Shown in pieces: positions 1 to 45,338 of a stretch of DNA of 64,000 bases. The notes below the pieces were generated by a model. It saw only the letters and a list, made by a program, of their open reading frames with translations, had not been told where the DNA came from and did no database searches. This DNA comes from Acidimicrobiales bacterium. GTDB taxonomy: Bacteria > Actinomycetota > Acidimicrobiia > Acidimicrobiales > AC-9. The stretch covers positions 8,486 through 72,485 of the forward strand of contig DASXCO010000181.1 of assembly GCA_036491125.1 (NCBI GenBank). The letters are read 5' to 3'. Each line of letters opens with the position of its first letter. The stretch's first letter is position 1. The position numbers were made by a program, and so were the translations under genes.

Positions 1-699
1 GTCCTCGAGGACGACGGCGGCGGAGCCCTCGGCCATGAGGAACCCGTCCCGCCGGGCATCGAACGGCCGGGAGATGCCGATCTGGGAGAGGGCGGTCGTG
101 TTGGTCAGGGCGGCAACAGCGGGGTCGATCATGGCTCCCTCCGCGCCGCCCGCCAGCATGACCTCGCAGCGGCCGCTCGCCACGAGGCGCGCCGCGTTGG
201 CGACGGCGTGGGTCCCCGTCGCACAGGCGGTGGAGATCGTCTCGCACGGGCCCCGCCACCCGGTCCGCATGGACACCAGGGCCGAGCCGGCGTTGAGCAT
301 CATCATGGGTACCAGGAAGGGGGAGACACGATCCGAGCCGCGGTCCCGCTCGACGACGAACTGGGTCTCGAGGGTCTCGATGCCCCCCGCGCCGGTACCC
401 ATGACGACGCCCGCCCGGTCGGGGTCGACATCGACGGCGCCGGCGTCCTCGACGGCCATGGCCGCCGCCGCCACGGTCAGCTGGCCGAACCGGTCGACCC
501 GGCGGACCTCCTTTGGACCGAGCCACAGGGACGGATCGAAGCCGACGACGCGGCGCTCGCCCGTCGGCGCGGGGCCGCACAGGCCGTCCCAGAAGGCGTC
601 CTTCCCGAGTCCGCAGCAGGAGACGACCCCCAGTCCGGTGATCGCCACCCGTCGGGCGGTCACCTCATGGGCTCCGGCCTCACCCCACACCAATCGCAT
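1..699 (-). CDS. fabF: 3-oxoacyl-ACP synthase II (KAS II, FabF/KasA-like), N-terminal ~230 aa; rest of gene lies left of the window
   Basis: Own reverse-strand translation from ATG 699 (GTG 663 is an alternative start): ..RRVAITGLGVVSCCGLGKDAFWDGL..VVMGTGAGGIETLETQF..SPFLVPMMMLNAGSALVSMRTGWRGPCETISTACATGTHAV..MLAGGAEG.. The STACATG active-site Cys region is the KAS II signature. Absent from the ORF track because it has no stop inside the window. Confidence 0.8.
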   Translation of the reverse strand, partial: MRLVWGEAGAHEVTARRVAITGLGVVSCCGLGKDAFWDGLCGPAPTGERRVVGFDPSLWLGPKEVRRVDRFGQLTVAAAAMAVEDAGAVDVDPDRAGVVMGTGAGGIETLETQFVVERDRGSDRVSPFLVPMMMLNAGSALVSMRTGWRGPCETISTACATGTHAVANAARLVASGRCEVMLAGGAEGAMIDPAVAALTNTTALSQIGISRPFDARRDGFLMAEGSAAVVLED

Positions 700-787
700 C
701 AGGGCGCCACCTTAGAGCGGACGGCGGCGTCTCCGGCCCCGTCGCCGCCTCTGACCGAGTCGCGGGGAGGCGGCAGCAGGGGGCAGG

Positions 788-1087
788 TCAGTGCTCGTCC
801 CAGTGGCCGTCGTGGGCCGCGTGCCGGTGCTCGCCATGGACGAAATCGGTGTGGTCGTCGTGGGCGACGGCGGCGTGGCCACAGCCCTCACCGTGGGTAT
901 GGTCGTGACTGTCGTGGGTCACGTGGACGGCGGGGACGCACTCGTCCCAGTGCCCGCCGTGGTCCCGGTGGACGTGGCCGTCGTGGAGGTAATCGGTGTG
1001 GTCGTCATGAAGGACTGCGACGTGCCCGCAGCTCACGCCGTGGGCGTGCTCGTGACTGCCGTGGGTCTGGTGGTTGTCAGCGGTCAT
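788..1087 (-). CDS. small His/Cys-rich putative metal-binding protein (99 aa, two-fold internal repeat)
   Basis: Track ORF 788..1321 trimmed to ATG 1087 (GGAGG 10 nt upstream; ATGA overlap with the stop of the upstream ArsR gene). 27 His in 99 aa. The unit HG-x2-CGH-x-AV-x-HDDHTD[YF]-x-H-x2-H-x-H-x2-H-x-GHWDE occurs twice. Confidence 0.75.
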   Translation of the reverse strand: MTADNHQTHGSHEHAHGVSCGHVAVLHDDHTDYLHDGHVHRDHGGHWDECVPAVHVTHDSHDHTHGEGCGHAAVAHDDHTDFVHGEHRHAAHDGHWDEH

Positions 1088-1455
1088 GGGTGATGAACCT
1101 CCGTTGTGGGATCTGACTGGGTAGAGCTCCGGTGGCCGGGCTCTGTGCCGTGGGTGATGGCGTCGTGAGCGATGTGGGCGACGTGGTCGTCCGCCAGGGT
1201 GTAGACGGTCTCCTTGCCCTGGCGGGCGGCGGTGACCAGTCCGGTGCCGCGCAGCACCCTGAGGTGCTGTGAGGCGAGGGACGGCGAGATGCCGAGGTCG
1301 TCGACCAGCTCGTGCACGCACCGAGGGCGCTCGGCCAGCAGCAGGACGATCGCCAGGCGATGAGGCGTGCCGAGGGCCCGGAGCAGATCGCAGCCCTTGG
1401 CGAGGGCCGTGTCATCCGGCGCGACGCTGCGAGGCGTCACCGGGCTCGCTGTCAT
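1084..1455 (-). CDS. ArsR/SmtB-family metal-sensing transcriptional repressor
   Basis: 123-aa ORF with winged HTH CDLLRALGTPHRLAIVLLLAERPRCVHELVDDLGISPSLASQHLRVLRGTGLV. C-terminal DDHVAHIAHDAITHGTE fits the alpha5 metal-site spacing D-x-H-x10-H-x2-E of SmtB/CzrA-type sensors. Confidence 0.9.
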   Translation of the reverse strand: MTASPVTPRSVAPDDTALAKGCDLLRALGTPHRLAIVLLLAERPRCVHELVDDLGISPSLASQHLRVLRGTGLVTAARQGKETVYTLADDHVAHIAHDAITHGTEPGHRSSTQSDPTTEVHHP

Positions 1456-1461
1456 GTCAAC

Positions 1462-1490
1462 AGTTTAGCGATTGTTCAAACGTTTGTCCA
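1462..1490 (-). promoter_or_regulatory. candidate sigma70-type promoter plus operator of the arsR-like operon (leaderless transcript predicted)
   Basis: AT-rich island in GC-rich DNA. On the minus strand: TGGACA (1490-1485), 17 nt, TAAACT (1467-1462), 6 nt, ATG (1455). The perfect 10-bp palindrome CAAACGTTTG (1477-1486) lies in the spacer at the -35 edge. Confidence 0.45.
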
Positions 1491-1525
1491 TGACGGCGGC
1501 CCGAGCAGGCCGGGGACCGAGGTCG

Positions 1526-1966
1526 TCAGCTGGCGACGGGATCGAGGATGACGAGCGGGATCTCCCGGTCGGTGCCCTGCTGGTACTTGTCGTAGTCCGG
1601 CCATACCGCAGTGGCTCGAGGCCACCACTCGGCCTTCTCGGCCGGCGTCGCCGTGTGGGCGCTGTAGTCCTTGAGGTCGGGGCCGTCCTGAAGGCTCACG
1701 GTCGGACTGGCAACCAGGTTGAGGTACCAGACCGGGTGCTTGGGCGCCCCGCCCATGGAGGCAACTACTGCGTACTGGTCGCCGCGCCGGATCCGCATGA
1801 GCGGGTTCTTGCGGATGGCGCCGCTGTGGCGACCGCGTGTCCACAGAACGACGCACGGCTTGCCCTCCAGCTCGGCGCCCTCCTGGCCGCCCGTCCGCTC
1901 GTAGGTGTCCACCTGGTCAGCGACGGGCTCCCAGGCGCTCGGCTCGTACTTTCCCTCCAGAGTCAT
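1526..1966 (-). CDS. deazaflavin (F420)-dependent nitroreductase-family oxidoreductase (Ddn-like)
   Basis: Track ORF 1526..2137 trimmed to ATG 1966 (MTLEGKYEPS..). GKPCVVLWTRGRHSGAIRKNPLMRI..YAVVASMGGAPKHPVWYLNLVASPTVSLQDG matches the Ddn-family split-barrel pattern. Confidence 0.8.
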   Translation of the reverse strand: MTLEGKYEPSAWEPVADQVDTYERTGGQEGAELEGKPCVVLWTRGRHSGAIRKNPLMRIRRGDQYAVVASMGGAPKHPVWYLNLVASPTVSLQDGPDLKDYSAHTATPAEKAEWWPRATAVWPDYDKYQQGTDREIPLVILDPVAS

Positions 1967-1997
1967 GCGGACCTGTCTACCACCACGACCCGTTCGT

Positions 1998-2384
1998 CTA
2001 GCGCGAGAACGGTGTCTCCGGTGTGGCTTGTCGCTCACCGTCGATCGTGAGGTCGACTCGCTCGTTGAAGAAGCACAGAAGCCCGGCGACGCCCTCCGCC
2101 TGAGGGATGGGAGACTCGTAGCTCCACACGATGTCATCGTGCACCTCGCCGCCGACCTCGAGCGACCAGTACGACGCCTGGCCCTTGAACGGGCAGGTCG
2201 TCTCGGTGCTGGTGGGCCGGAGCAGCTCGGTGCGCACGTCCTGGCGGGGAAGGTAGTACCGCGTGGGCAAGCCGGTCTCCTCGAGGAGAACCGGGTGCTG
2301 CGAGTCGGCGACCGTCTCGCCGCCGACTGCGATCTCGACGTGGAGATCGGCAGGCGTGATCGTGATCTGGTGACCCTGTGTCAT
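1998..2384 (-). CDS. DUF427 domain protein
   Basis: 128-aa ORF. ..TRYYLPRQDV..TTCPFKGQASYWSLEV..VWSYESPIPQAEGVAGLLCFFNERVDLTIDG resembles the DUF427 pattern. High GC3. Confidence 0.7.
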   Translation of the reverse strand: MTQGHQITITPADLHVEIAVGGETVADSQHPVLLEETGLPTRYYLPRQDVRTELLRPTSTETTCPFKGQASYWSLEVGGEVHDDIVWSYESPIPQAEGVAGLLCFFNERVDLTIDGERQATPETPFSR

Positions 2385-2436
2385 GGTTCAGGCAACGGCT
2401 CAGAGTCCGCCGGCATTCCGGCGGGCCTCGGGGGAC

Positions 2437-2979
2437 TCAGGATAACCCTTTGGTCATGTCCAGCACGGCAGTCACCGTGCGCCAGTTCCGCACGGTGATC
2501 GGGGTGGCGAGGATCCGGTCGAGGCCGTTGAGCACCTTGCTCTGACCGATGCCGTTCGGGGCCCAGATGTAGATCTCGCGGCCCCTGTGGTGGAGCACAT
2601 CGGGTGGCGACCGGTGCGGATCGAGCGCCGCGATGGCGCGTTGGTCGGGAACGGCCTCCAGGAAGCCGACGTGCAACTGTCTCCCATGGTCGACCCCCGG
2701 CTGGAGGAACGGGTTCTTGGCCGCCACCTCGACCATCTGGCTGGCGCTTCGCACGATGACACCGACGTCGAGCCCGAAGGTGTCGCTCACGTGCTGGCGG
2801 ACGTCGGCTGCGACCCCCTTCTCCTGGAGCCTGCTGCGCAGGACGACGTTGCCGCTCTGCACGTACGTCTGGACGTCACGGTGGCCGCTCGAGGTCAGCA
2901 CCTGGCGCAGAGTTCCCATGGCAACCCGGTTGCGCCCCGCCAGGTTGATGCCCCGTAGCAGCACGACGTAGGTCGGCAC
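2437..2979 (-). CDS. DUF1697 domain protein
   Basis: Track ORF 2437..3645 trimmed to GTG 2979 (VPTYVVLLRGINLAGRNRVAM..). The LLRGIN.gG.n...M N-terminus and ~180-aa size are typical of DUF1697. The upstream 220 codons of the track ORF are Arg/Pro/Ser-rich shadow sequence. Confidence 0.75.
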   Translation of the reverse strand: MPTYVVLLRGINLAGRNRVAMGTLRQVLTSSGHRDVQTYVQSGNVVLRSRLQEKGVAADVRQHVSDTFGLDVGVIVRSASQMVEVAAKNPFLQPGVDHGRQLHVGFLEAVPDQRAIAALDPHRSPPDVLHHRGREIYIWAPNGIGQSKVLNGLDRILATPITVRNWRTVTAVLDMTKGLS

Positions 2980-3035
2980 CTCGGCATACTGCCACCTTCC
3001 CGGGCACCGTCCCCGGGTGCCACGGGCCGCCCCGC

Positions 3036-3374
3036 GTGGCCCAGCCGATGATTCCCGGTGCCGGGCGTCGTCGTAGCAGTGTGGCGCAGCGACACCGGGA
3101 CGCGATGGTCGTGCTCGCCCGCGACGACGTGGAGCTGGCAACCTGGCCGTTTTGGTGGTGGGGTCGCCCGGGCCTCGAAGCCGTGGACGAGCTGGCGCGG
3201 CTGCAGCTCGTCGCCACACGCCTGGGCTGCTCGATCCGCCTGCGCACTGCCTGCGACGAGCTTTGCGACCTGCTGGACCTGGTCGGCCTGAGCGACCTCC
3301 TGCTCGGAGACATCGGCCGAGTGGCCCGGACGGACGGGGACGCCGAGGGCGGTAACGAGATCGGACCTCCCTAG
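3036..3374 (+). CDS. small STAS-like protein (anti-sigma-antagonist fold, C-terminal half recognisable)
   Basis: 112-aa ORF hidden under two long spurious minus-strand ORFs, with high GC3. ..GLEAVDELARLQLVATRLGCSIRLRTACDELCDLLDLVGLSDLL resembles small actinobacterial STAS proteins as I remember them. The N-terminal ~45 aa are atypical. GTG 3036 or ATG 3048 start. Confidence 0.4.
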   Translation: MAQPMIPGAGRRRSSVAQRHRDAMVVLARDDVELATWPFWWWGRPGLEAVDELARLQLVATRLGCSIRLRTACDELCDLLDLVGLSDLLLGDIGRVARTDGDAEGGNEIGPP

Positions 3375-3391
3375 CCGAGGAACCGAGGTAG

Positions 3392-4804
3392 CTAACCCGG
3401 GTGGAGGCTCGGAGGCCGGGCCTCGGTGGTCGCCGACGGGCGGACCCGAGCCCGCCAGCTGGCGTAGGCGGGGACGAGGGCGACCGACGCCAGCACGACC
3501 AGGGACGGCTCGGCCTCGACTCTGAGGCGCGTCTGTCCGTAGGACGCGAAGGTGCTCGCGGTGACGATGACCGCAGGGACGACGAGGGGCCAGACTCCGG
3601 CGCGGCGGCGCCACAGGACGACGACGCCCCCGATCGCGAGCGCAAGCAGCGGATAGAAGAAGGCGAGGCCCAATCCCGTCACCCACTGTGGGCGACCCTC
3701 GTTCTCGTTCCACTGCAGCATGTCGAGCGGACGGAACAGGCTCCAGTCGCGACCGATACGGGCCGCGCTGACGACGACCAGGCGTTGCAGGTGGCCCTTC
3801 ATGTAGTGGATGCCCTCGCCCCGGTAGATCCTGGAGACGGTTGACTCGTCGCCCGCAGGCGGGATGCGGGGCAGACAGACGCCCGGTGCGTCGACCACGA
3901 GCCCCAGACCGTAACCGTGGTAGGCGGCGTCGCAGTTCGACGCCAGGAGTGTGGCCCCGTCGTTGGTCGAGATGAACGTGGCCGTCTGGAAGCGGCTCAG
4001 GTTGTAGGCGACCCAGGGCGCCATCACCAGGCCGGCGGCGACGAGGATCGCCCCGGCTCGGGCCAGACGCCTGCGCATGGTCGCCCGGTGCTTCGGCAGG
4101 ACGAACCAGACGGCGAGGAGAGGGGCGAGCAGGACCAGCTCCGCCCGGGCGAGTGTGGCCAGTCCGCAGACGGCACCAAGCCCGACAGCGGTCAGGAGAC
4201 GGGGCCGCCTCGCCAACCGGTACGCCAGCAGCATGGCGATGACAACGGTGAGAGCGGTCAATGTCTCTGACATGATGAGCCCGTCGTTGACCCAGAGGTT
4301 CGGGTAGACGGCGGCGATGGCGGCGGCGAGAAGTCCCACCCTGGTGCCGGCGATCTCCCGGCCGAGCAGGCCGACGAGCAGCACCGCGGCCGACCCGAGC
4401 ACGACCATCGTGAACCGCATGGCGAGGGCGCTGCCACCGGTGGCCCAGGCGACCGGAGTCAGCACCAGGACCGTGAGCGGTGGGTGCACCGCTGTGGGAA
4501 GCAGCGGTGTGTTGGGGTGAGTGAGCGCCTGGAACGGGTCGGTGAACCCGTGCCCCGTCGCCACCTGCTGCGCCTCGAGCTGGTAGAAGACGGCGTCGTA
4601 GAAGTGCCTGTCGTAGCGGGACACGCCGAGCACGAAGGCGGTGCGCACCCCGAAGGCCACGACCACGATGAGCAGCAGGGCGGTGAAAAATCGTCGGGAC
4701 CCGTCGGGGACCCGTGCAGCGAGGCTGCCTCGGACCCTCGATGGCAGCCGTCCGGTTCGTGTCGGGCGGACCTGATCGTGTTGGCCAGTGGCGGGAGGAG
4801 GCAT
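3392..4804 (-). CDS. GT-C fold membrane glycosyltransferase (GT39/GT83, PMT_2/ArnT-like)
   Basis: About 470 aa with 10 or more hydrophobic segments and a soluble loop. This is the typical polyprenyl-phosphate-sugar dependent transferase architecture. Start set to ATG 4804 (GGAG 4 nt upstream); GTG 4837 is possible. Confidence 0.75.
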   Translation of the reverse strand: MPPPATGQHDQVRPTRTGRLPSRVRGSLAARVPDGSRRFFTALLLIVVVAFGVRTAFVLGVSRYDRHFYDAVFYQLEAQQVATGHGFTDPFQALTHPNTPLLPTAVHPPLTVLVLTPVAWATGGSALAMRFTMVVLGSAAVLLVGLLGREIAGTRVGLLAAAIAAVYPNLWVNDGLIMSETLTALTVVIAMLLAYRLARRPRLLTAVGLGAVCGLATLARAELVLLAPLLAVWFVLPKHRATMRRRLARAGAILVAAGLVMAPWVAYNLSRFQTATFISTNDGATLLASNCDAAYHGYGLGLVVDAPGVCLPRIPPAGDESTVSRIYRGEGIHYMKGHLQRLVVVSAARIGRDWSLFRPLDMLQWNENEGRPQWVTGLGLAFFYPLLALAIGGVVVLWRRRAGVWPLVVPAVIVTASTFASYGQTRLRVEAEPSLVVLASVALVPAYASWRARVRPSATTEARPPSLHPG

Positions 4805-4895
4805 CGTCTCCGTTCTGCTGGCAGCTGTGGCCCGCACGCCAATACGGGCGGCAGGACCCTATCAACCTGCCCGAGGCCAGGGCTATCCTCTCGCC

Positions 4896-5645
4896 GTGTA
4901 CCGTCAGCTCTCAGTGGTGCTGGTCGTGCCAGTGCTCGACGAGGCGGGGAAGATCGGTGAGGTCGTGCGACGTGCGCCCCGCGCGATCGTCGACGAGGTT
5001 GTCGTCGTGGACGATGGATCCACGGATGGGTCCCGTGAGGAGGCCGCCGCCGGAGGCGCCAACGTCATCGAGCTGGGCAGCACCCAGGGAGTCGGCGCCG
5101 CCCTCCGGATCGGCTTCGAGCACGTCCTGGCGAGCGGCGCGGACGCCGCCGTCGTGGCCGCCGGCAACAACAAGGACGCGCCCGAGGAGATCCCGACGCT
5201 GCTCGACCCGATCGCCGATGACCGAGCCGACCTCGTGCAGGGCTCCCGGTTCCTGAGCGCAGGGGCGAGCCTGGGGGACATGCCGGGCTATCGACGGGTC
5301 GCCGTGAGGCTCCACTCGCACCTCTTCTCCCGTCTCGCCGGCTGTCGGGTCACCGACTCGACGAACGGCTTCCGGGCCATCCGCACGAGTGTGCTTCGTG
5401 ACCCGAACCTCGAGCTCGACCGGTCGTGGCTCGATGCCTACGAGCTCGAGCCGTACCTCCTCCTCCGCGCCATCAAGCTGGGCTATCGATTCCTGGAGGC
5501 CCCCGTCACCAAGGTCTATCCCGACCGAGCGCTCGGTCAGACGAAGATGCGCCCAGTTGTCGACTGGTGGTCGATCCTCCGGCCGCTGGCGGTCGCTGCC
5601 ATCGGGGGTGAGCGGCTGTCGCGCCGCTACTATTCGAAGGGATGA
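4896..5645 (+). CDS. GT2 family glycosyltransferase (polyprenyl-phosphate sugar synthase, ArnC/Dpm1-like)
   Basis: LSVVLVVPVLDEAGKIGEVV..VVVVDDGSTDGS..VQGSRF..TDSTNGFRA are GT-A/GT2 motifs. Start moved to GTG 4896 because codons 4788-4895 have poor GC3 and would overlap the divergent gene. Confidence 0.8.
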   Translation: MYRQLSVVLVVPVLDEAGKIGEVVRRAPRAIVDEVVVVDDGSTDGSREEAAAGGANVIELGSTQGVGAALRIGFEHVLASGADAAVVAAGNNKDAPEEIPTLLDPIADDRADLVQGSRFLSAGASLGDMPGYRRVAVRLHSHLFSRLAGCRVTDSTNGFRAIRTSVLRDPNLELDRSWLDAYELEPYLLLRAIKLGYRFLEAPVTKVYPDRALGQTKMRPVVDWWSILRPLAVAAIGGERLSRRYYSKG

Positions 5646-6688
5646 TCGACATCGGCGTGGTGGGCGCCGGCCATTGGGGACCCAATCTCATTCGCAGCTT
5701 CCAGGACCTCCCCGGGAGTCGGGTGGTGTGGGTGATCGATCACGACCGTCGACGCCTCGATGAGGTCCAGGGGCGTTACCCCGGAGTCAGGGTCGGGGAC
5801 GATCCGGTTGCCGCCCTCCCAGACGTTGACGCCCTCGTGGTGGCCACGCCGGCGACGAGCCATTTCGCGCTCGCCCACCTCGCACTCTCGGCGGGCAAGG
5901 ACGTATTGATCGAAAAGCCGATGACAATGGGCATCGGCGACGCGGAGGAGCTCTGCCGGCTGGCGCGGTCGTCCGGCAACGTCCTCATGGTGAGCCACCT
6001 CTTCCTCTACGCGCGGGCCGTTCAGTGGGTGCGCGACTACCTCTGGGCCGGACAGCTCGGATCCGTCTACCACCTCACCATGGTGCGCAACAATCTCGGC
6101 CCGGTCCGGGACGACGCCAACGCCGCCTGGGATCTGGCGGCCCACGACATCTCGATCGCGAACTACTGGCTCAAGGCCGTGCCCATCGCCGTCTCGGCTG
6201 TCGGAGGCAAGTGGATCAACCCCTGCGTCGAAGACGCCGTCTTCGTCACCATGCGCTATCCAGACGATGTTCTCGTCAATCTGCACGCCTCCTGGCTCAG
6301 CCCCCGCAAGGTGCGGGATATCACGGTGGTCGGGAGCCAACGGATGCTGACCCTCGACGACATGAATCTCACCGAGCCAGTGAGGGTATACGACAAGCGG
6401 GTGCTCGATGGGGGCGAACGGAGCAGGGGTGTCGTCGACACCTTCGCTTCCTTCCGGGCCAGCATCCGCGAAGGAGACATCTCCATTCCTCGGATCACCC
6501 TGGAGGAGCCGCTCAAGACCGAGTGCATGCACTTCCTCGAATGTGTCGTGAAGCGGACAGAGCCGATCACGAGCGGACGTCAGGGGACGAGCGTCGTCCG
6601 AGTCCTGGAGGCGATCGATCGTTCCCTGCAGGACGAGGGCAGAGAAGCGGTGCTCGAGGTGGAACGGGTTGACAGTCCCGCTGGTTGA
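5642..6688 (+). CDS. Gfo/Idh/MocA family NAD-dependent sugar oxidoreductase (WbpB/GnnA-like 3-oxidase)
   Basis: MIDIGVVGAGHWGPNLIRSF Rossmann start and EKPM motif (LIEKPMT). ATGA overlap with the GT2 stop. Operon context with an aminotransferase and an acetyltransferase. Confidence 0.85.
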   Translation: MIDIGVVGAGHWGPNLIRSFQDLPGSRVVWVIDHDRRRLDEVQGRYPGVRVGDDPVAALPDVDALVVATPATSHFALAHLALSAGKDVLIEKPMTMGIGDAEELCRLARSSGNVLMVSHLFLYARAVQWVRDYLWAGQLGSVYHLTMVRNNLGPVRDDANAAWDLAAHDISIANYWLKAVPIAVSAVGGKWINPCVEDAVFVTMRYPDDVLVNLHASWLSPRKVRDITVVGSQRMLTLDDMNLTEPVRVYDKRVLDGGERSRGVVDTFASFRASIREGDISIPRITLEEPLKTECMHFLECVVKRTEPITSGRQGTSVVRVLEAIDRSLQDEGREAVLEVERVDSPAG

Positions 6689-37422: not shown

Positions 37423-38595
37423 TCAGCGCCGCTGGCTTCGACGCTCGAGGGCCCGAACGATGGCGCCGGCGGCGAGCAGGCCGACAAGAGTCAGCCAACC
37501 GCCGGGGCCGGGCGTACCCGAAGGCCCCCTCTGCTGGCCCCGCGACACCCGGGATGGCTCAGCGCCAAGGGGATCCGCCACCAGCATCGTTGGTCCGTCG
37601 CTGCGCAGGAGGAGGCGGCCTTGCATGGAGAACAGCAGCGCGAAGGACGGGCCCACGAGGAAGACCGCAATGACGAAGATCACGACCAGGGCCACCAGCG
37701 TCGAGTTCGGGGCGCCAGCATTGCCCAAATTCACGGAGGTTCCAGGCAGCACAGCAGGGTACTGGGCCACCCCCCAGCCCCACACGACCAGGGCCACCCC
37801 CAGGGCGGACAAGACACGAAGGCCCTGCCGTCGGCGACTGGCCAAGAGCCCCAGGACGGCCAGGCCGATCACGCCGGCCAGCACGACAAAAGGAAGCGCC
37901 CGGCCGGTCAGGCGGTTGGACAATGTCTCGTTCGAGGCGTGCAACTCCAGAAGGGTGGCTAGCGACAGCGCCCCGGTGACCACTCCGGCGACGATGGCCC
38001 GGAGGGTGAAGTAGCGCCGTAGGCGGTCTTCGTCTCTTCGCGCCGCTTCCTCGATGAGGTAGACGGCAGCCAGATAGGCACACGCGCTCACGAACAGGAA
38101 CCCGATCAGCAGGGAGGTCGCCTGGGTCCACGCCGAGAGACTGAGGTGGGTCGCGTTGGCGGGAACGCTGCCGGCGGCGATGGCCCCGATCACTGTCCCC
38201 ATGAAGAAGGGGGTGAGGAGCGAGGAGAAGGCGAACATGGCCCCGAAGGCACGCTGCAGGCTCAATCGAGCCGTTTCCTTGCGAAAGGCGAGGCCGATCC
38301 CACGCAGGACCACTCCGAACAGCGCCAGCCATAGCGGCACGGCCGCCGTATTCATCACGGCCGAGAATCCGGTGGGGAAGGCGGTCCAGAAGATGACCAG
38401 GGCGAAGACGAGCCAGACGTGGTTGGCTTCCCACACCGGGGTGATGGACTCCTCGATCAGCCGGCGCGGGGCGCGGCCACGGACGTCACCACCGGCCAGC
38501 AGATCCCACAGGCCACCGCCGAAGTCCGCCCCGCCGAAAATGGCGTAGGCGGCGATGGCGGCCAGCAGGATGGCTCCGACCGTGGCCGCGATCAC
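37423..38595 (-). CDS. cydB: cytochrome bd ubiquinol/menaquinol oxidase subunit II with C-terminal extension
   Basis: ..YAIFGGADFGGGLWDLL.. N-terminus and multi-TM body. GTG 38595 overlaps the cydA stop (GTGA). The last ~60 aa (linker plus extra helix WLTLVGLLAAGAIV) extend past the usual end. Confidence 0.85.
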   Translation of the reverse strand: MIAATVGAILLAAIAAYAIFGGADFGGGLWDLLAGGDVRGRAPRRLIEESITPVWEANHVWLVFALVIFWTAFPTGFSAVMNTAAVPLWLALFGVVLRGIGLAFRKETARLSLQRAFGAMFAFSSLLTPFFMGTVIGAIAAGSVPANATHLSLSAWTQATSLLIGFLFVSACAYLAAVYLIEEAARRDEDRLRRYFTLRAIVAGVVTGALSLATLLELHASNETLSNRLTGRALPFVVLAGVIGLAVLGLLASRRRQGLRVLSALGVALVVWGWGVAQYPAVLPGTSVNLGNAGAPNSTLVALVVIFVIAVFLVGPSFALLFSMQGRLLLRSDGPTMLVADPLGAEPSRVSRGQQRGPSGTPGPGGWLTLVGLLAAGAIVRALERRSQRR

Positions 38596-39983
38596 CCGCC
38601 CACCTGTCCCAGGGCGCGCTCCTCCGGCATCGTCGGCGGACCATAGGGAACCCCCGGCTCCTCGTTCCGGCGCCATCGCCTGGCCAGGTAGCGCAGGATG
38701 AGGACCGTGGCAACGCCGAGAAGGGCGTAGAACACAACGGTGATGCTCAAGATGGCCAGTACCCCCCCGTTGGTCGTCGAGGCCGCCGAGGTGGTGAGGA
38801 GGCGATAGACGACCCAGGGCTGGCGGCCGACCTCTGTGACCACCCAGCCGCACTCCATGGCCACGATGGCCGCCACACCGCTGAGGCTGGCAAGGAGCCA
38901 GAACCATCGGATCAGGGGCAGGCGACGTCGACGCCACCAGATGTAGAGCGCCCACAGGCCCAGCAGCAGCAGCAGGCTTCCCAGGCCAACCATGACGTCG
39001 AAAGCCAGGTGGATGAGCCAGGGCGCCGGCGGCCGCTGGGAAGCAGGCACGCTGTTCCAGCCGACCACCTTCGTGCGGGGGCTGAAGCCGACCAGGATGG
39101 AGTCCAGCCAGGGGATCCGCAACCCCCCGTAGACATGCCCGTTGACGTAGACGCCGGCGATGTACTCCGGGACGTGAGTCGCTGCATGCGGGACATACTC
39201 CATGGAGGCGAACTTCACCGGCTGGTCGCTCGCGATGGCCCGGGCGGCGGTGTCTCCGATCACGAGCTGGGGCAGCGTGAGCACGCCCGCCGTCACGAAC
39301 GGGATGGCGAAGCCGGTGTAGTGGTAGCGGTCACGTCGCCCTCGAAACACGCCGGCGGCGTAGACCCCGGCGACAGCGAAACCGGTGACCAGATAGGCAG
39401 CGAGAATCATGTGGGGCATCTCGTAGGAGGCAGCCGTATTGAAGAACACGTTCCACGGGCTCACCGAAACGACGTGGCCGCCTCGGACGGTGAATCCACC
39501 CGGCTGGTTCATCCACGAGTTGACAGCCACGACCGACATGGCACCGAAGATGCCGCTCACCGCGATGGGCACACCTGACCAGAAGTGCGCCCAGCCTCGT
39601 AACCGGCTCCAGCCGTAGAGGTAAATGGCAGTGAAGATGGCCTCCAGGAAGAAGAACAGGCCCTCGACGCCGAAGGGAAATCCCAGCACCTCCCCGTACT
39701 TGCGCATCAGCCTCGGCCAGAGGAGACCCAACTCGAACGACAGCACCGTTCCAGTGACCGCCCCGACGGCGACAAGCACCCCCATGGCCTGTGACCATCG
39801 CCGCGCCAGGAGGAGTGCGACCTGGTTCGAACGCCGGAGGCCGATGAACTCTGCGATCAGCACGATCGTCGGGAAGGCGATGCCGACGCAGGCAAGGATG
39901 ATGTGAAACCCGAGGGTCGTCGCCATCTGGCCGCGGGCAGGCACTACCTGGCCGGCGGCCGCGAACACCGAGGGGTCAGCCAC
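38592..39983 (-). CDS. cydA: cytochrome bd oxidase subunit I (short Q-loop type)
   Basis: ..ARGQMATTLGFHIILACVGIAFP.., ..FGVEGLFFFLEAIF.., ..GWVVTEVGRQPWVVY.. are CydA hallmarks; 463 aa; GTG start. Confidence 0.9.
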   Translation of the reverse strand: MADPSVFAAAGQVVPARGQMATTLGFHIILACVGIAFPTIVLIAEFIGLRRSNQVALLLARRWSQAMGVLVAVGAVTGTVLSFELGLLWPRLMRKYGEVLGFPFGVEGLFFFLEAIFTAIYLYGWSRLRGWAHFWSGVPIAVSGIFGAMSVVAVNSWMNQPGGFTVRGGHVVSVSPWNVFFNTAASYEMPHMILAAYLVTGFAVAGVYAAGVFRGRRDRYHYTGFAIPFVTAGVLTLPQLVIGDTAARAIASDQPVKFASMEYVPHAATHVPEYIAGVYVNGHVYGGLRIPWLDSILVGFSPRTKVVGWNSVPASQRPPAPWLIHLAFDVMVGLGSLLLLLGLWALYIWWRRRRLPLIRWFWLLASLSGVAAIVAMECGWVVTEVGRQPWVVYRLLTTSAASTTNGGVLAILSITVVFYALLGVATVLILRYLARRWRRNEEPGVPYGPPTMPEERALGQVGG

Positions 39984-40223: not shown

Positions 40224-43200
40224 ATGGGGGCGCGTAGCTGGATTGAGTCGTGGCCGGTCTACCGTCAGTTGGCGCAGCACGACCTGCTCGGCCTCGGCGC
40301 GGCGACCAAGAGCAAGCGCAGCGAGGCGCTCGAGCCTCGTGTCCGACGGGCCGAGAAGGTGGCCAAGTCCGTGTGTCCCTACTGCGCGGTCGGCTGCGGC
40401 CAGGACGTCTATGTCGAGGACGGCCGGGTCACCCAGATCGAAGGCGACCCGGATTCGCCGGTCAGCCGCGGCCGCCTCTGCCCCAAGGGTTCGGCGAGCC
40501 TGCAGCTGACGACCGGCGACGCTCGTCAGTACCGGGTGAGATACCGGCGATCCTTCGGCACCGACTGGGAGGATCTGGACCTCGACACGGCCTTGGACAT
40601 GATCGCCGACCGGGTCATCTCGGCCAGGCAGGCCGGCTGGCAGTGGCAGGTCGACGGCGCTCGTACTCGCCGCACGCTCGGTGTCGCCAGCCTCGGCGGG
40701 GCCACACTGGACAACGAGGAGAACTACCTCATCAAGAAGCTGTTCACTGCGCTCGGCGCCATCCAGATCGAGAACCAGGCCCGGATATGACACTCCGCCA
40801 CCGTCCCCGGTCTGGGGACAAGCTTCGGGCGCGGCGGGGCCACAAACTTCCAGCAGGACCTGCAGAACTCTGACTGCATCCTGATCGAAGGCTCGAACAT
40901 GGCCGAGTGCCATCCGGTCGGCTTCCAGTGGGTCATGGAAGCCAAGGCCCGCGGTGCCACCCTCATCCACGTCGACCCGCGCTTCACTCGTACCAGCGCC
41001 CTGGCCGACCTCCACGTGCCGCTACGAGCGGGGACCGACATCGTCTTCATCGGCGGGCTCATCAATCACGTGCTCAGCAATGACCAGTACTTCAAGGACT
41101 ACGTCCTGGCCTACACCAACGCGGCGACGATCCTGACCGAGGACTACGCCGACACCGAGGACCTCGATGGTGTGTTCTCTGGCCTGATCCGCGATTACAA
41201 CGTGTATGACTTCGATGCCTGGCGATACCAGGGAGACGAGGTCAAGGCGGTAGCCGGCGAGCGCGAGCAGCTCGAGGCCCAACACCGCATTCGGCGCATG
41301 GTGCGCCAGGCGGGGCGGGGCGAGGCGCACGGCTGCGGTGGCGCTGCCGCTCATCCGAACCCGGACACCGACCCGACCCTGCAGCATCCACGCTGTGTGC
41401 TCCAGGTGCTCAAGCGGCACTTCGCCCGCTACACGCCCGATCTGGTGGAGCAGGTGTGCGGGGTGCCACAGGGCCGGTTCACCAAGGTGTGCCAGCTCGT
41501 CACCGACAACTCGGGGCCCGACCGGACTACGGCGTTCGTCTACAGCCTCGGCTGGACCCAGCACACCGTCGGTGTGCAGTACATCCGCACCGCCGCCATC
41601 CTCCAGTCGCTGCTCGGCAACGTGGGTCGACCGGGCGGCGGCATCATGGCGCTGCGGGGGCACGCCTCCATCCAGGGGTCCACCGACATCCCGACGCTGT
41701 TCGACCTGCTCCCCGGCTACCTGCCGATGCCGCACGCCTACGGGAACGAGGATCTCGCCACCTACCTACGGGCCGAGTCGACCCGAGAGGGGTTCTGGTC
41801 GAACACCGGTGCCTATCTGGTCAGCCTGCTCAAGGCCTGGTGGGGTGAGGCCGCGAGGGCCGAGAACGACTACTGCTACGACTACCTGCCTCGGCTGACC
41901 GGCAGCCATAGCACCTACGAGACGGTGCTGGCCCAGCTCGACGGCAGGTGCAAGGGCTACTTCCTGTACGGCCAGAACCCGGCCGTGGGCTCGGCTAACG
42001 CCAGGATGCAGCGCATGGGCATGGCCAACCTGGACTGGCTGGTGGTGCGGGACATGGTGATGATCGAGAGCGCCACGTGGTGGAAGGACGGGCCCGAGAT
42101 CGAGACGGGTGAGCTGCGCACCGAGGACATCGGCACCGAGGTGTTCTTCCTGCCCGCCGCCGCCCACACCGAGAAGGCCGGCAGCTTCACCAACACCCAG
42201 CGCATGCTGCAGTGGCGCGACCAGGCGGTCGATCCTGGCGGCGACGCCCGCAGCGACCTGTGGTTCACCTACCACCTCGGGCGAAGGATAAGACAGAAGC
42301 TGGCCTCCTCCGCCGAGGATGCTGATCGGCCGGTTCTCGACCTCACCTGGGACTATCCCGTGCGCGGTCCGCTCGAGGACCCGGACGCCGAGGCGGTGCT
42401 TGCCGAGATCAACGGGTGGGACTCGGATCAGCGGCCGCTGTCGACCTATACCCAGCTCGTCGACGACGGCTCCACCGCGTGCGGCTGCTGGATCTACTGC
42501 GGGGTGCGCGCCGAGGGGGTCAACCAGGCCGCCCGCCGCAAGCCAGGACAACAGCAGAGCTGGGTAGCGCCGGAGTGGGGCTGGGCGTGGCCGGCCAACC
42601 GGCGGGTGCTCTACAACCGAGCGTCGGCTGATCCAGAGGGAAGACCGTGGAGCGAGCGCAAGGCGCTGGTCTGGTGGGACGAGGGCGAGGGACGGTGGGC
42701 CGGCCACGACGTGCCGGACTTCATCGCCGACCGCGCCCCCTCCTACCGCCCGCCCAAGGGCGCCACGGGCACGGCGGCGATCTCCGGCATCGATCCGTTC
42801 ATCATGCAAGCCGACGGCAAGGCCTGGCTGTTCGCCCCGGCCGGCTTGGTGGACGGCCCGCTGCCCGCCCACTACGAGCCCCAGGAATCACCTTTTCCCA
42901 ATGCTCTCTACGCCCAGCAGCACAACCCGGTGCGCCAGCTCATCCGCCACCCAGACGACCGGTACCAGCCCAGCGGCGACGAGCCAGGAGCGGACATCTT
43001 CCCCTACGTGACCACCACCTACCGGCTCACTGAGCACCACACCGCCGGAGGCATGTCCCGGTTCCTGCCCTACCTGTCCGAGCTGCAGCCAGCCTTCTTC
43101 TGCGAGGTCTCTCCCCATCTCGCTGCTGAGCGCGGCCTCGAACATGCGGGCTGGGCGACGATCATCACCGCCCGTAGTGCCATCGAGGCGCGGGTTCTGG

Positions 43201-43475
43201 TCACCGAGCGGATACGGCCTCTCGAGGTGCAGGGCCGGACGCTGCACCAGGTCGGCCTTCCCTGGCACTGGGGTCCAAGCGGGTACACGACCGGGGACGC
43301 CGCCAACGAGCTGGCCCACCTGGCACTCGATCCGAACGTCCACATTCAGGAGGTAAAGGCCATGGCCTGCGACATCCGCCCCGGCAGACGGCCGCGTGGC
43401 CCGGCCCTTCGTGAGCTCGTGCGCGACTATCAGAGCCGCGCCGGCATAACGGACCAGACGGGGACCGAGATGTGA
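40224..43475 (+). CDS. fdnG: formate dehydrogenase (FDH-N/O type) molybdopterin alpha subunit, selenocysteine-containing (TGA 40788-40790 read as Sec)
   Basis: Track ORFs 40224..40790 and 40899..43475 are in the same frame. Read-through gives ..IENQARI-U-HSATVPGLGTSFGRGGATN..CILIEGSNMAECHPVGF.., colinear with the Sec region of E. coli FdnG/FdoG. N-terminal CPYCAVGCG 4Fe-4S motif. No twin-arginine signal seen. Confidence 0.85.
40788..40840 (+). promoter_or_regulatory. UGA-Sec codon plus SECIS-like hairpin
   Basis: GTCCCC-GGTCT-GGGGAC (40803-40819) starts 12 nt after the TGA. The GGUCU apical loop resembles the E. coli SECIS loop. A possible lower stem pairs CTCCGCC (40793-99) with GGCGGGG (40833-39). 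Confidence 0.6.
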
Positions 43476-43476
43476 G

Positions 43477-44391
43477 ATGGGCGCGGCGACAGGCCACGGT
43501 GTGACGAGCGCCCCGAACCTGGACACGGCATCAGCCGATCACCCTGGCCTCGACCCGGCCGCTCGGGCCGGTCATCTTGATCACCCGCCCCGCGTGGGGT
43601 TCTTCACCGATACCTCGGTCTGTATCGGCTGCAAAGCCTGCGAGGTTGCCTGCAAGGAGTGGAATGGCGTGCCCGAGGACGGTCTGCTCCTGACCGGGAT
43701 GTCCTACGACAACACCCAAGGCCTGAGCGCATCGACCTGGCGCCACGTGGCCTTCATCGAGCAACCGGCCCAGGGCCCGATGGACGAGGACACCGCAGCC
43801 CAGCACGACGGTGAGGAGCGTCCTGAGCTGCGCTGGCTGATGTCGAGTGACGTGTGCAAGCACTGCACAGAGGCGGGGTGCCTGGATGTGTGCCCGACCG
43901 GGGCACTGATGCGCACGGAGTTCGGGACGGTCGTGGTCCAAGATGACGTCTGCAACGGGTGCGGCTACTGCGTGTCGGCCTGCCCGTTCGGGGTCATCGG
44001 CAGGCGCCAGTCAGATGGAGGAGCGCACAAGTGCACCCTCTGCTATGACCGGCTGGGTGACGGCCTGACGCCCGCCTGCGCCAAGGCGTGTCCCACCGAG
44101 TCGATACAGTTCGGTCCGCTCGACGAATTGCGGCAGCGCGCGCAGCGGCGGGTGGCCAGCCTGCACCAGTCCGGCAGGACCCAAGCTCGGCTGTACGGTG
44201 AGGACCCGGACGACGGCGTCGGCGGGGCGGGAGCTTTCTTCCTGCTCCTCGACCGCCCTGAGGTGTACGGCTTACCCCCGGACCCGGTTGTGCCCACGCG
44301 TGACCTGCCTCGCATGTGGCGGCACGCCGGCGTTGCCGCGGCCAGCCTCGCACTCACCGCCGTCGCCGCGTCCGTGGGACGCCGGCGATGA
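43477..44391 (+). CDS. fdnH: formate dehydrogenase iron-sulfur beta subunit (4x[4Fe-4S], FdnH-like) with C-terminal TM anchor
   Basis: CIGCKACEVACK, CKHCTEAGCLDVCP, CNGCGYCVSACP and CTLCYDR..ACAKACP clusters. C-terminal WRHAGVAAASLALTAVAASV helix. Starts 1 nt after the alpha stop. Confidence 0.9.
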   Translation: MGAATGHGVTSAPNLDTASADHPGLDPAARAGHLDHPPRVGFFTDTSVCIGCKACEVACKEWNGVPEDGLLLTGMSYDNTQGLSASTWRHVAFIEQPAQGPMDEDTAAQHDGEERPELRWLMSSDVCKHCTEAGCLDVCPTGALMRTEFGTVVVQDDVCNGCGYCVSACPFGVIGRRQSDGGAHKCTLCYDRLGDGLTPACAKACPTESIQFGPLDELRQRAQRRVASLHQSGRTQARLYGEDPDDGVGGAGAFFLLLDRPEVYGLPPDPVVPTRDLPRMWRHAGVAAASLALTAVAASVGRRR

Positions 44392-45338
44392 AGAGCCGCG
44401 CGGGCCGCCGCGGCGGCGAGAAGGCGATGGTGCCGGAGGCTGAGTTCACCTCCTACTACGGCCGGCCGGTGGTCAAGGAAACGGTGTGGGGGCCCGCTGT
44501 GCCCAGCTATCTGTTCCTCGGCGGGCTGGCCGGTGCCTCGTCGGCCCTCGCCGCCGGTGCCCAGATCTCCGGGCATCCGGAGCTCGCCCGCACGGCCAAG
44601 GCCGGTGCAGCCGGCGCCATCAGCCTGTCGCTGGGCGCGCTGGTACAGGACCTCGGCCGGCCCGCCCGGTTCGTCAACATGCTGCGGGTGCTCAAGGTGA
44701 CCTCACCCATGAGTGTCGGCACCTGGCTGCTGTCCGTCTACGCCCCGCTCGCCCTAGCCGCCGAAGCGTCGGCAGTGACGCGAAAACTGCCACGGGCTGG
44801 GCTGGCCGCGACCTTCGCCGCCGCCCCACTCGGGCCGGCCGTCGCTGCCTACACCTCGGTGCTGCTCGGCGACACTGCCGCGCCGGCGTGGAACGACGCC
44901 CGCCGCGAGCTGCCCTACCTGTTCGTCGGATCGGCCGCCACGGCGGCTGGCGGGCTGGGCCTGCTCGCTGTCGCGCCCCAGAAGGCCAGGCCCGCCTCTC
45001 GCCTGGCGGTCGTCGGGGCGGCCACTGAGCTCGCGACTGAATGGCTGATCGATCGGCGCCTCGGCCCCGTTGCAGAGACCTACCGGACAGGCAGATCGGG
45101 AATGCTGATGCGGACGGGGCGCATGCTCGCTACCGGGGGGGCGGCCGGAGCGCTCCTCGGCCGCCGGAACCGGGTCGTCTCGGCACTCTCCGGAGCAGCA
45201 CTGCTCGCCGGCTCGGCCGTCACGCGGTTCGGGGTGTTCGACGCCGGCCGCGCCTCAGTCAGGGACCCGAGGTATGTCGTCGAGCCACAACGGGGACGCG
45301 TAGACGAGAGGGGGATGATCGGATCGTCCAGGCACTAA
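44388..45338 (+). CDS. NrfD/PsrC-family quinone-interacting membrane subunit
   Basis: ..YYGRPVVKETVWGPAVPSYLFLGGLAGASSALA.. and about 8 TM helices typical of the NrfD family. ATG 44388 overlaps the beta-subunit stop (ATGA). Confidence 0.75.
   Translation: MKSRAGRRGGEKAMVPEAEFTSYYGRPVVKETVWGPAVPSYLFLGGLAGASSALAAGAQISGHPELARTAKAGAAGAISLSLGALVQDLGRPARFVNMLRVLKVTSPMSVGTWLLSVYAPLALAAEASAVTRKLPRAGLAATFAAAPLGPAVAAYTSVLLGDTAAPAWNDARRELPYLFVGSAATAAGGLGLLAVAPQKARPASRLAVVGAATELATEWLIDRRLGPVAETYRTGRSGMLMRTGRMLATGGAAGALLGRRNRVVSALSGAALLAGSAVTRFGVFDAGRASVRDPRYVVEPQRGRVDERGMIGSSRH

Follow-up and report, generated by a model that had tools for sequence, protein, structure and literature searches.

A 64,000-nucleotide stretch of genomic DNA from an uncultured Acidimicrobiales bacterium (contig DASXCO010000181.1, positions 8,486 to 72,485; hereafter the window) carries, on its forward strand, two adjacent open reading frames (ORFs) that correspond to the two parts of a formate dehydrogenase (FDH) alpha subunit. 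Our comparative analysis supports the interpretation of these split ORFs as one selenocysteine (Sec) gene of a type that is already known. The region 40224-43475 is very probably a single gene, fdhA, in which UGA codon 189 encodes the active-site Sec and a hairpin just downstream acts as a bacterial Sec insertion sequence (SECIS) element. The features on which this interpretation rests are the following.

40224..43475, + strand: fdhA, probable Sec-containing FDH alpha subunit of the actinobacterial type with a molybdenum or tungsten bis-pyranopterin guanine dinucleotide (Mo/W-bis-PGD) cofactor, without a twin-arginine signal (NF041513, PDB matches, dN/dS)
40788..40790, + strand: UGA codon 189, probably read as the catalytic Sec and followed by His190 (alignment to 1h0h, fdnG and fdhF; orthologues)
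40803..40819, + strand: putative apical SECIS hairpin, 12 nt after the TGA, with a 6-bp stem GUCCCC/GGGGAC (arms 40803-40808 and 40814-40819) and loop GGUCU

Continuity of fdhA across an in-frame UGA

As the initial annotation stated, the two ORFs (40224..40790, 188 amino acids; 40899..43475, 858 amino acids) share one frame, and their starts lie exactly 675 nt, or 225 codons, apart. The only in-frame separator is the TGA at 40788-40790. Reading through it yields 1083 sense codons with one internal stop, codon 189, and a terminal TGA; the 894 codons downstream contain no additional stop or frameshift. The read-through peptide at the stop, ..TALGAIQIENQARI*HSATVPGLGTSFGRGGATNFQQDLQNSDCILIEGSNMAECHPVGFQWVMEAK.., is letter for letter the continuous FDH sequence that had been quoted. 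An independent JGI metagenome contig (L098; 9.4 kb, 99.8% identical) contains both the TGA and the hairpin, and a Logan contig from run X2 shows zero differences across 40764-40814. Because these two contigs agree with the window, the TGA is not an assembly slip. It had further been expected that automatic annotation would split the gene. The JGI gene calls on L098 do so, giving proteins of 188 and 858 amino acids, but the NCBI pipeline annotates homologues as one coding sequence (CDS).

The read-through protein matches the NCBIfam model NF041513 (formate_DH_Act) with 1978.4 bits (cut-off 1400) over residues 6-1072 and profile positions 2-1067 of 1067, and TIGR01553 with 922 bits (cut-off 814). 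In the PDB, its matches include the enzyme of Desulfovibrio gigas (1h0h, E 8e-209), Escherichia coli FdnG (1kqf, E 2e-205) and Desulfovibrio vulgaris FdhA (approximately 1e-205), with FdhF as a more distant match. Together, the family-model and PDB matches settle what the protein is. The TGA falls on the Sec 'X' of 1h0h (..IEHQARIXHSATVAAL.. versus ..IENQARI-HSATVPGL..) and is aligned with the TGA of E. coli fdnG (DNQARV*HGPTV, codon 196) and fdhF (CCARV*HGPSV, codon 140; both sequences from NC_000913). The proposal that this stop occupies the Sec position was therefore borne out against FdnG (37% identity over 1068 amino acids), FdhF and Desulfovibrio FdhA, and the E. coli motif quoted in its support was correct. 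The active-site Arg is also kept: 'ALRGHASIQGSTD' is aligned to 'ALRGESNVQGSTD' of D. vulgaris FdhA, placing the Arg of ALRG at position 441. An N-terminal [4Fe-4S] Cys motif, CPYCAVGCG...CPKG, is present, and PF04879 (Molybdop_Fe4S4) matches the 188-amino-acid part. No twin-arginine motif was seen at the N terminus (MGARSWIESWPVYRQL...), which lies within the NF041513 profile.

Selection on the gene was measured as the ratio of nonsynonymous to synonymous substitution rates (dN/dS; Nei-Gojobori, pairwise against eight orthologues). The values were 0.09-0.26 for codons 1-188, 0.13-0.29 for codons 190-225, which precede the next ATG, and 0.16-0.29 for codons 226-1083. The 36 codons that separate the TGA from that ATG thus evolve as coding sequence, as the initial annotation had proposed from their resemblance to conserved enzyme sequence. 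Given a dN/dS of 0.13-0.29 beyond the TGA, this part of the gene is kept as protein, which rules out two genes divided at Met226 and speaks against a dead gene. Synonymous divergence (dS) in codons 190-225 was below that of both flanks in all eight comparisons.

Conservation of the Sec codon among orthologues

We assembled 95 orthologous loci, 15 from an exact search with a 50-nt pattern and 80 from a protein-guided scan. The 50-nt stretch around the TGA is letter-identical in the 15 species-level genomes found by the pattern search, mainly actinomycete metagenome-assembled genomes (MAGs) plus Ornithinicoccus halotolerans, and their fdhA genes are 73-84% identical overall. The protein-guided scan added Streptomyces, Actinomadura, Nocardioides, Kitasatospora, Pseudonocardia, Geodermatophilus, Saccharomonospora and many MAGs. 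At the Sec codon, 91 of the 95 loci have TGA, one has TAG and three have a Cys codon (TGT or TGC); TGA is also present in all 32 additional distinct sequences from loci retrieved through SelA. Among these orthologues, no natural two-gene split was seen. The closest genomes are uncultured soil MAGs at about 80% identity, none in the collection exceeds about 84%, and the organism itself has been seen only in soil metagenomes (JGI 3300036780 and others).

Several loci of this survey merit separate mention. The TAG belongs to Geodermatophilus sp. TF02-6 (L085:10559-10624, NZ_QOHF01000010.1), where it is followed by an intact hairpin, GTGCCC-GGTCT-GGGCAC; no tRNA-Sec was found within this locus. 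Mukai et al. reportedly described UAG-encoded selenocysteine in Geodermatophilus and Blastococcus in 2016 (Angew Chem), with which this TAG is consistent. Two genomes with Cys-type FdhA, the Streptosporangiaceae MAG RYN_225 (L074/L225) and Actinoallomurus soli WRP6H-15 (L095/L222), also encode SelA, and these Cys-type proteins are probably paralogues beside a Sec system, not replacements after Sec loss. In four of the closest MAG orthologues (Microflora Danica MAGs; L015, L017, L018 and L020), the frame stops at 562-1006 codons instead of about 1083; these early ends look like assembly indel or frameshift errors rather than real truncations. Actinomycete-type fdhA with TGA and hairpin also occurs in MAGs labelled Gemmatimonadaceae (L005) and Candidatus Melainabacteria (L093), and a Dormibacteraeota MAG (L159), retrieved through SelA, has nearby only tblastn matches to fdhA and fdhB. 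For these three non-actinobacterial labels, either binning contamination or horizontal transfer may be responsible. In four soil metagenomes, assembler word depth over 40713-40930 was approximately 350-6000, compared with approximately 15-30 to either side. Many co-occurring soil actinomycetes share the k-mers around the Sec codon and SECIS, and the 50-nt identity across 15 species reflects the same conservation.

A conserved hairpin downstream of the UGA

The sequence GTCCCC-GGTCT-GGGGAC lies at 40803-40819, 12 nt past the TGA, as first reported. An extra G.U or A-U pair between 40809 and 40813 would leave a GUC triloop. The likeness of its GGUCU loop to E. coli SECIS loops was confirmed: the fdhF loop is GGUC(U), and the loop G23-U24 of the window (numbered from the U of UGA; 40810-40811) occupies the register seen in E. 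coli fdhF and fdnG. Perfect hairpins with a 6-bp stem and a 5-nt loop occur 39 times on the + strand of the window, and a single such hairpin is not beyond chance; the significance of this one comes from comparative data and not from the single sequence.

For the comparison we aligned 77 distinct TGA or TAG sequences, which required no indels, and scored a seven-pair structure comprising the 6-bp stem and the loop-closing G.U or A-U pair. Of the 539 cells, 99.8% were paired, compared with 25-68% when the 3' arm was slid by one to three columns, and none of 500 shuffles matched the observed covariation score or percentage paired. Compensatory change is concentrated in the pair between the wobble positions of Val+5 and Gly+9 (columns 24/36), which is C-G in 41 sequences, U-A in 28, U-G in 3, G-C in 2, G-U in 2 and mismatched in 1, with both sides changed in 32 cells. 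The switch is visible inside one genus, with U-A in Nocardioides eburneus (L051) and C-G in N. cheoyonin (L060). The covariation signal thus consists of one freely variable pair together with fixed minority codons, the other stem positions being mostly fixed by protein and RNA. Gly+7 is encoded by GGT in 72 of the 72 sequences with Gly there, and 13 of the gene's 100 Gly codons are GGT; Pro+6 is encoded by CCC in 92 of 92, and the commonest Pro codon in the gene is CCG. The 32 additional SelA-derived sequences form the hairpin without a mismatch. By contrast, the three Cys orthologues (L074, L094 and L095, the only three available) have no stem: Ala replaces Pro, the codons are ordinary G/C-ending ones (GCG/GCC-GGG-CTG/CTC-GGC), and the stretch reads GTG GCG GGG CTG GGC or similar. 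Conservation of the hairpin among TGA-containing orthologues, which the initial annotation had singled out for checking, therefore takes the form of compensatory change in these and loss of the stem with Cys. On this comparative evidence, the hairpin is in all likelihood a SECIS element that would be bound by SelB.

Other approaches to the same region were less informative. In a scan of synonymous-codon entropy the SECIS codons did not stand out, ranking 25th of 125 windows. The strong bias towards G or C at third codon positions (GC3 of fdhA 0.875; G+C of the window 67.6%) leaves most columns low in entropy in any case, and the scan was replaced by the analyses of fixed minority codons, pair covariation and pairwise dS. 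A lower stem offered by RNAalifold and by the Rfam model found no support in covariation, its pairs being either invariant C-G pairs in Gly and Arg codons or mismatched. A second TGA located 12 nt 5' of a perfect hairpin with a 6-bp stem and a 5-nt loop occurs within the downstream gene fdhB (43838-43869; TGA and hairpin at 43838/43853). We rejected it as a recoding site, the TGA being out of frame and the arrangement a chance coincidence; because of this coincidence, a TGA with a hairpin is not diagnostic on its own.

The nucleotide preceding the UGA

The codon preceding the UGA (40785-40787 in the window) is ATA in 34 loci, ATT in 28, GTT in 32 and ATC in 1, and thus ends in A or U in 94 of 95 Sec-type loci; A or U also stands just 5' of the UGA in all 32 additional sequences. 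In the three Cys-type loci the codon at this place is GTC or GTG, and ATC, GTC and GTG dominate elsewhere in fdhA. The A or U at position -1 looks like a selected context effect, an apparent requirement that would account for the rare ATA, ATT and GTT codons in genomes with a GC3 of about 88%. We found no published description of this preference. As a tentative proposal that we hold to be less probable than its negation, the actinobacterial FDH SECIS may constitute a distinct variant with a bulge-less G+C stem of 6-7 bp, a GU(C/U) loop and a need for A or U at -1. If position -1 indeed acts on the competition between SelB and release factor 2 (RF2), or on local unfolding at the UGA, it would amount to a context determinant of Sec insertion that is specific to this lineage.

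Probable selenocysteine insertion and alternative explanations

We consider it highly likely that the standard bacterial model of Sec insertion applies to fdhA. The G+C-rich hairpin, beginning 12 nt past the UGA, would present the loop G-U at positions 23-24. SelB loaded with GTP as well as Sec-tRNA(Sec) would bind it as the ribosome reaches the UGA and would bring the tRNA(Sec), whose anticodon is UCA, into the A site in competition with RF2. Translation would then proceed through the remaining 894 codons. In the finished enzyme, Sec189, His190 and the conserved Arg would form the active site on the Mo/W-bis-PGD cofactor, and electrons would pass through FdhB and an NrfD-type anchor to the quinone pool.

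Several observations weigh against this model. tblastn with E. coli SelA, SelB and SelD (E 1e-5) found none of the corresponding genes in the 64-kb window, ARAGORN found no tRNA there, and Rfam at gathering scores found no tRNA-Sec; selA, selB, selC and selD would have to lie elsewhere in this genome. Folded on its own, the sequence gives z-scores of -0.75 and -0.43, short of significance. The hairpin also lacks a bulged U17 like that of E. coli fdhF, U17 being paired with A31 in the continuous 6-bp stem. At gathering thresholds, Rfam gave no SECIS match in the whole window, and a permissive local search gave only a weak one, far below the gathering score of 63, with the UGA and GUC loop in register:

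40785..40843, + strand: weak match to Rfam SECIS_3 (FDH-type bacterial SECIS), 20.6 bits, E 0.016, model positions 1-59 of 59

The absence of sel genes and tRNA-Sec from the window, while many relatives keep them beside fdhA, would fit a relic gene in a lineage that has lost the Sec machinery; the UGA would end translation after 188 residues and the remainder would be a recently dead remnant. Mycobacteria with a SECIS but FDH pseudogenes have been reported (PMC13449736). However, the 894 codons after the TGA are free of stops and frameshifts, their dN/dS (0.16-0.29 downstream) is the same as upstream, fdhB and the anchor gene are intact, as are the hairpin and its minority codons, and unlinked fdhA and selA occur in a relative (the Acidothermaceae MAG described below). 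We therefore regard a relic as unlikely. Gene callers, for their part, predict exactly a natural split into a 188-amino-acid Fe-S domain protein and an 858-amino-acid catalytic protein starting at ATG 40899, and a GAAGG lies about 10 nt before that ATG. Against this, the 36 intervening codons, including that for the catalytic His190, are conserved under purifying selection, in every orthologue the break coincides with the Sec codon, the curated family model runs across it and the Cys orthologues are continuous, leaving a genuine split with next to no probability.

A single substitution separates the TGA from TGC or TGT, and Cys-type homologues exist, as would be expected if the TGA had arisen through an error in sequencing or assembly or through a recent nonsense mutation in a Cys codon. 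The same TGA, however, is found in the JGI contig, the Logan contig and 91 other species, and Cys-type genes differ in the neighbouring codons and lack the hairpin; such an origin is exceedingly improbable. We also considered SelB-independent read-through, in which a near-cognate or suppressor tRNA would insert Trp or Cys and the hairpin would only slow the ribosome or block RF2. UGA followed by C is a weak termination context, and no direct support for this mechanism was found here. The terminators of fdhA and its neighbours are TGA as well, the loop G-U lies in the SelB register, and genomes show tight linkage between this family and selA, selB, selC and selD, all of which make read-through of this kind very improbable. 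Sec insertion at codon 189 thus remains by far our preferred explanation.

Sec machinery in related genomes

In 35 loci of relatives, fdhA has a tRNA-Sec(UCA) no more than 10 kb away, and in 37-40 loci the same holds for SelA, SelB and SelD. In the reverse direction, scans of the genome collection with SelA, each listing the best 80 loci, recovered fdhA within approximately 6 kb in 50 of 80 and fdhB only in one more. The nearest MAG relatives were not among the best 80 loci in two such scans (with an alignment and with a Planotetraspora protein), which has no bearing either way. Linkage is not universal: in the Acidothermaceae MAG SMAG_U2044, a TGA-containing fdhA (L088) and selA (L249) are on separate contigs. 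The complete module is carried by the Arthrobacter sp. YA7-1 plasmid pYA7-1a and by a Tsukamurella tyrosinosolvens replicon, each with fdh as one CDS, a 4Fe-4S gene, nrfD, selD, tRNA-Sec, selA and selB; their RefSeq CDSs cross a TGA at codon 189 that is followed by the same hairpin.

On pYA7-1a (L182; NZ_CP110115.1:29393-48409), the order fdhA(Sec)-fdhB-nrfD-selD-tRNA-Sec-selA-selB is carried on a plasmid typed as conjugative, with an adjoining integrase, an arrangement well suited to spreading the Sec trait horizontally among actinomycetes. Saccharomonospora halophila 8 has been listed as an 'orphan SelD' organism (Peng et al. 2016; PMC5029168). Its 19-kb scaffold NZ_KB912486.1 (L092) encodes SelD, tRNA-Sec(UCA) and a TGA-containing fdhA with hairpin, and the 'orphan' label may reflect a fragmented draft assembly.

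Comparison with known systems

The closest known counterparts are the actinobacterial FDHs of NF041513, which match over the full length: that of pYA7-1a (WP_264638076.1), T. tyrosinosolvens fdnG (WP_197726957.1) and mycobacterial fdhA (PMC13449736). With the two annotated homologues, the window gene shares the TGA at codon 189, the hairpin position, the (G/A)GU(C/U)U loop and the gene order of fdhA, 4Fe-4S subunit and NrfD/PsrC anchor. Identity to the plasmid-borne FdhA is approximately 63-68% over the first 339 residues. In those records selD-selC-selA-selB directly follows the operon, whereas the fdh operon studied here has no sel gene within the 64 kb.

Compared with E. coli formate dehydrogenase-N, FdhA shares the QAR(V/I)-U-H motif of FdnG, the loop G23-U24 lies at the same distance from the UGA as in the fdnG SECIS, and FdhB resembles FdnH as a beta subunit with a C-terminal helix. 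E. coli FdnG carries a twin-arginine signal. The third subunit is of the NrfD/PsrC type in the window, in contrast to the cytochrome b FdnI of E. coli, and U17, bulged in the E. coli hairpin, is paired with A31 in that of the window. In fdhF, as here, the UGA is followed by 18 nt and then GGUCUG, the stem-loop begins 11-12 nt past the UGA and the loop is GGUC(U), but the window hairpin has a stem richer in G+C, lacks the bulged U and has no detected conserved lower stem. The nucleotide 5' of the UGA is A or U in 94 of 95 actinobacterial sequences, compared with C in fdhF and fdnG (GTC). Rfam SECIS_3 (RF01989) is in register over its 59 model positions, with several lower-stem pairs non-canonical in the window sequence.

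In published work, FDH alpha is the selenoprotein family most widespread among bacteria (PMC5029168), mycobacterial Sec-FdhA has its SECIS directly 3' of the UGA and is found in approximately 40% of genomes (PMC13449736), and Sec-FdhA was noted together with selABCD in Streptomyces incarnatus (PMC4498112).

The fdh operon and its surroundings

Two further genes complete the operon, and a divergent pair adjoins it outside the recoding device.

43477..44391, + strand: fdhB, electron-transfer subunit with 4x[4Fe-4S] and a C-terminal membrane helix (Pfam Fer4_11 and Fer4_7; TIGR01582)
44388..45338, + strand: NrfD/PsrC-type membrane anchor, presumed quinone-reducing subunit (Pfam NrfD PF03916; RefSeq homologous operons)
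37423..39983, - strand: cydAB, cytochrome bd oxidase, divergent neighbour of the fdh operon (Pfam Cyt_bd_oxida_I and Cyt_bd_oxida_II; JGI calls on L098)

The match of fdhB to TIGR01582 (FDH-beta) has an E value of 8.6e-56 and a score under the cut-off of that model; the third gene of homologous RefSeq operons is annotated 'NrfD/PsrC family molybdoenzyme membrane anchor subunit'. To judge from these families, FdhA, the Fe-S protein FdhB and the NrfD-type anchor would form a three-subunit, membrane-bound formate dehydrogenase, with its topology and physiological partner predicted on the same grounds. The position of the operon beside cydAB suggests formate-driven respiration at low oxygen. From approximately 25 kb onwards, the other genes of the window are ordinary for an actinomycete and encode a P450, Fur, a catalase-peroxidase-like protein, dehydrogenases, hydrolases, a LuxR-type regulator and sigma factors.

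Implications

The finding amounts to a correct re-annotation, the gene type being well known, and not to a discovery; it leaves existing knowledge of selenocysteine decoding unchanged. Two small departures are worth recording, namely the bulge-less hairpin and the near-absolute A or U before the UGA. The comparative data also yield a clean account of the actinobacterial FDH SECIS that can be reused; at their thresholds, current Rfam models miss this element. For metagenomics, the practical consequence is that pipelines report a 188-amino-acid Fe-S protein and an 858-amino-acid, N-terminally truncated molybdoenzyme where there is, in our reading, really one selenoenzyme. For the organism, a Sec-containing FdhA would imply that this uncultured soil actinomycete needs selenium and the Sec machinery.

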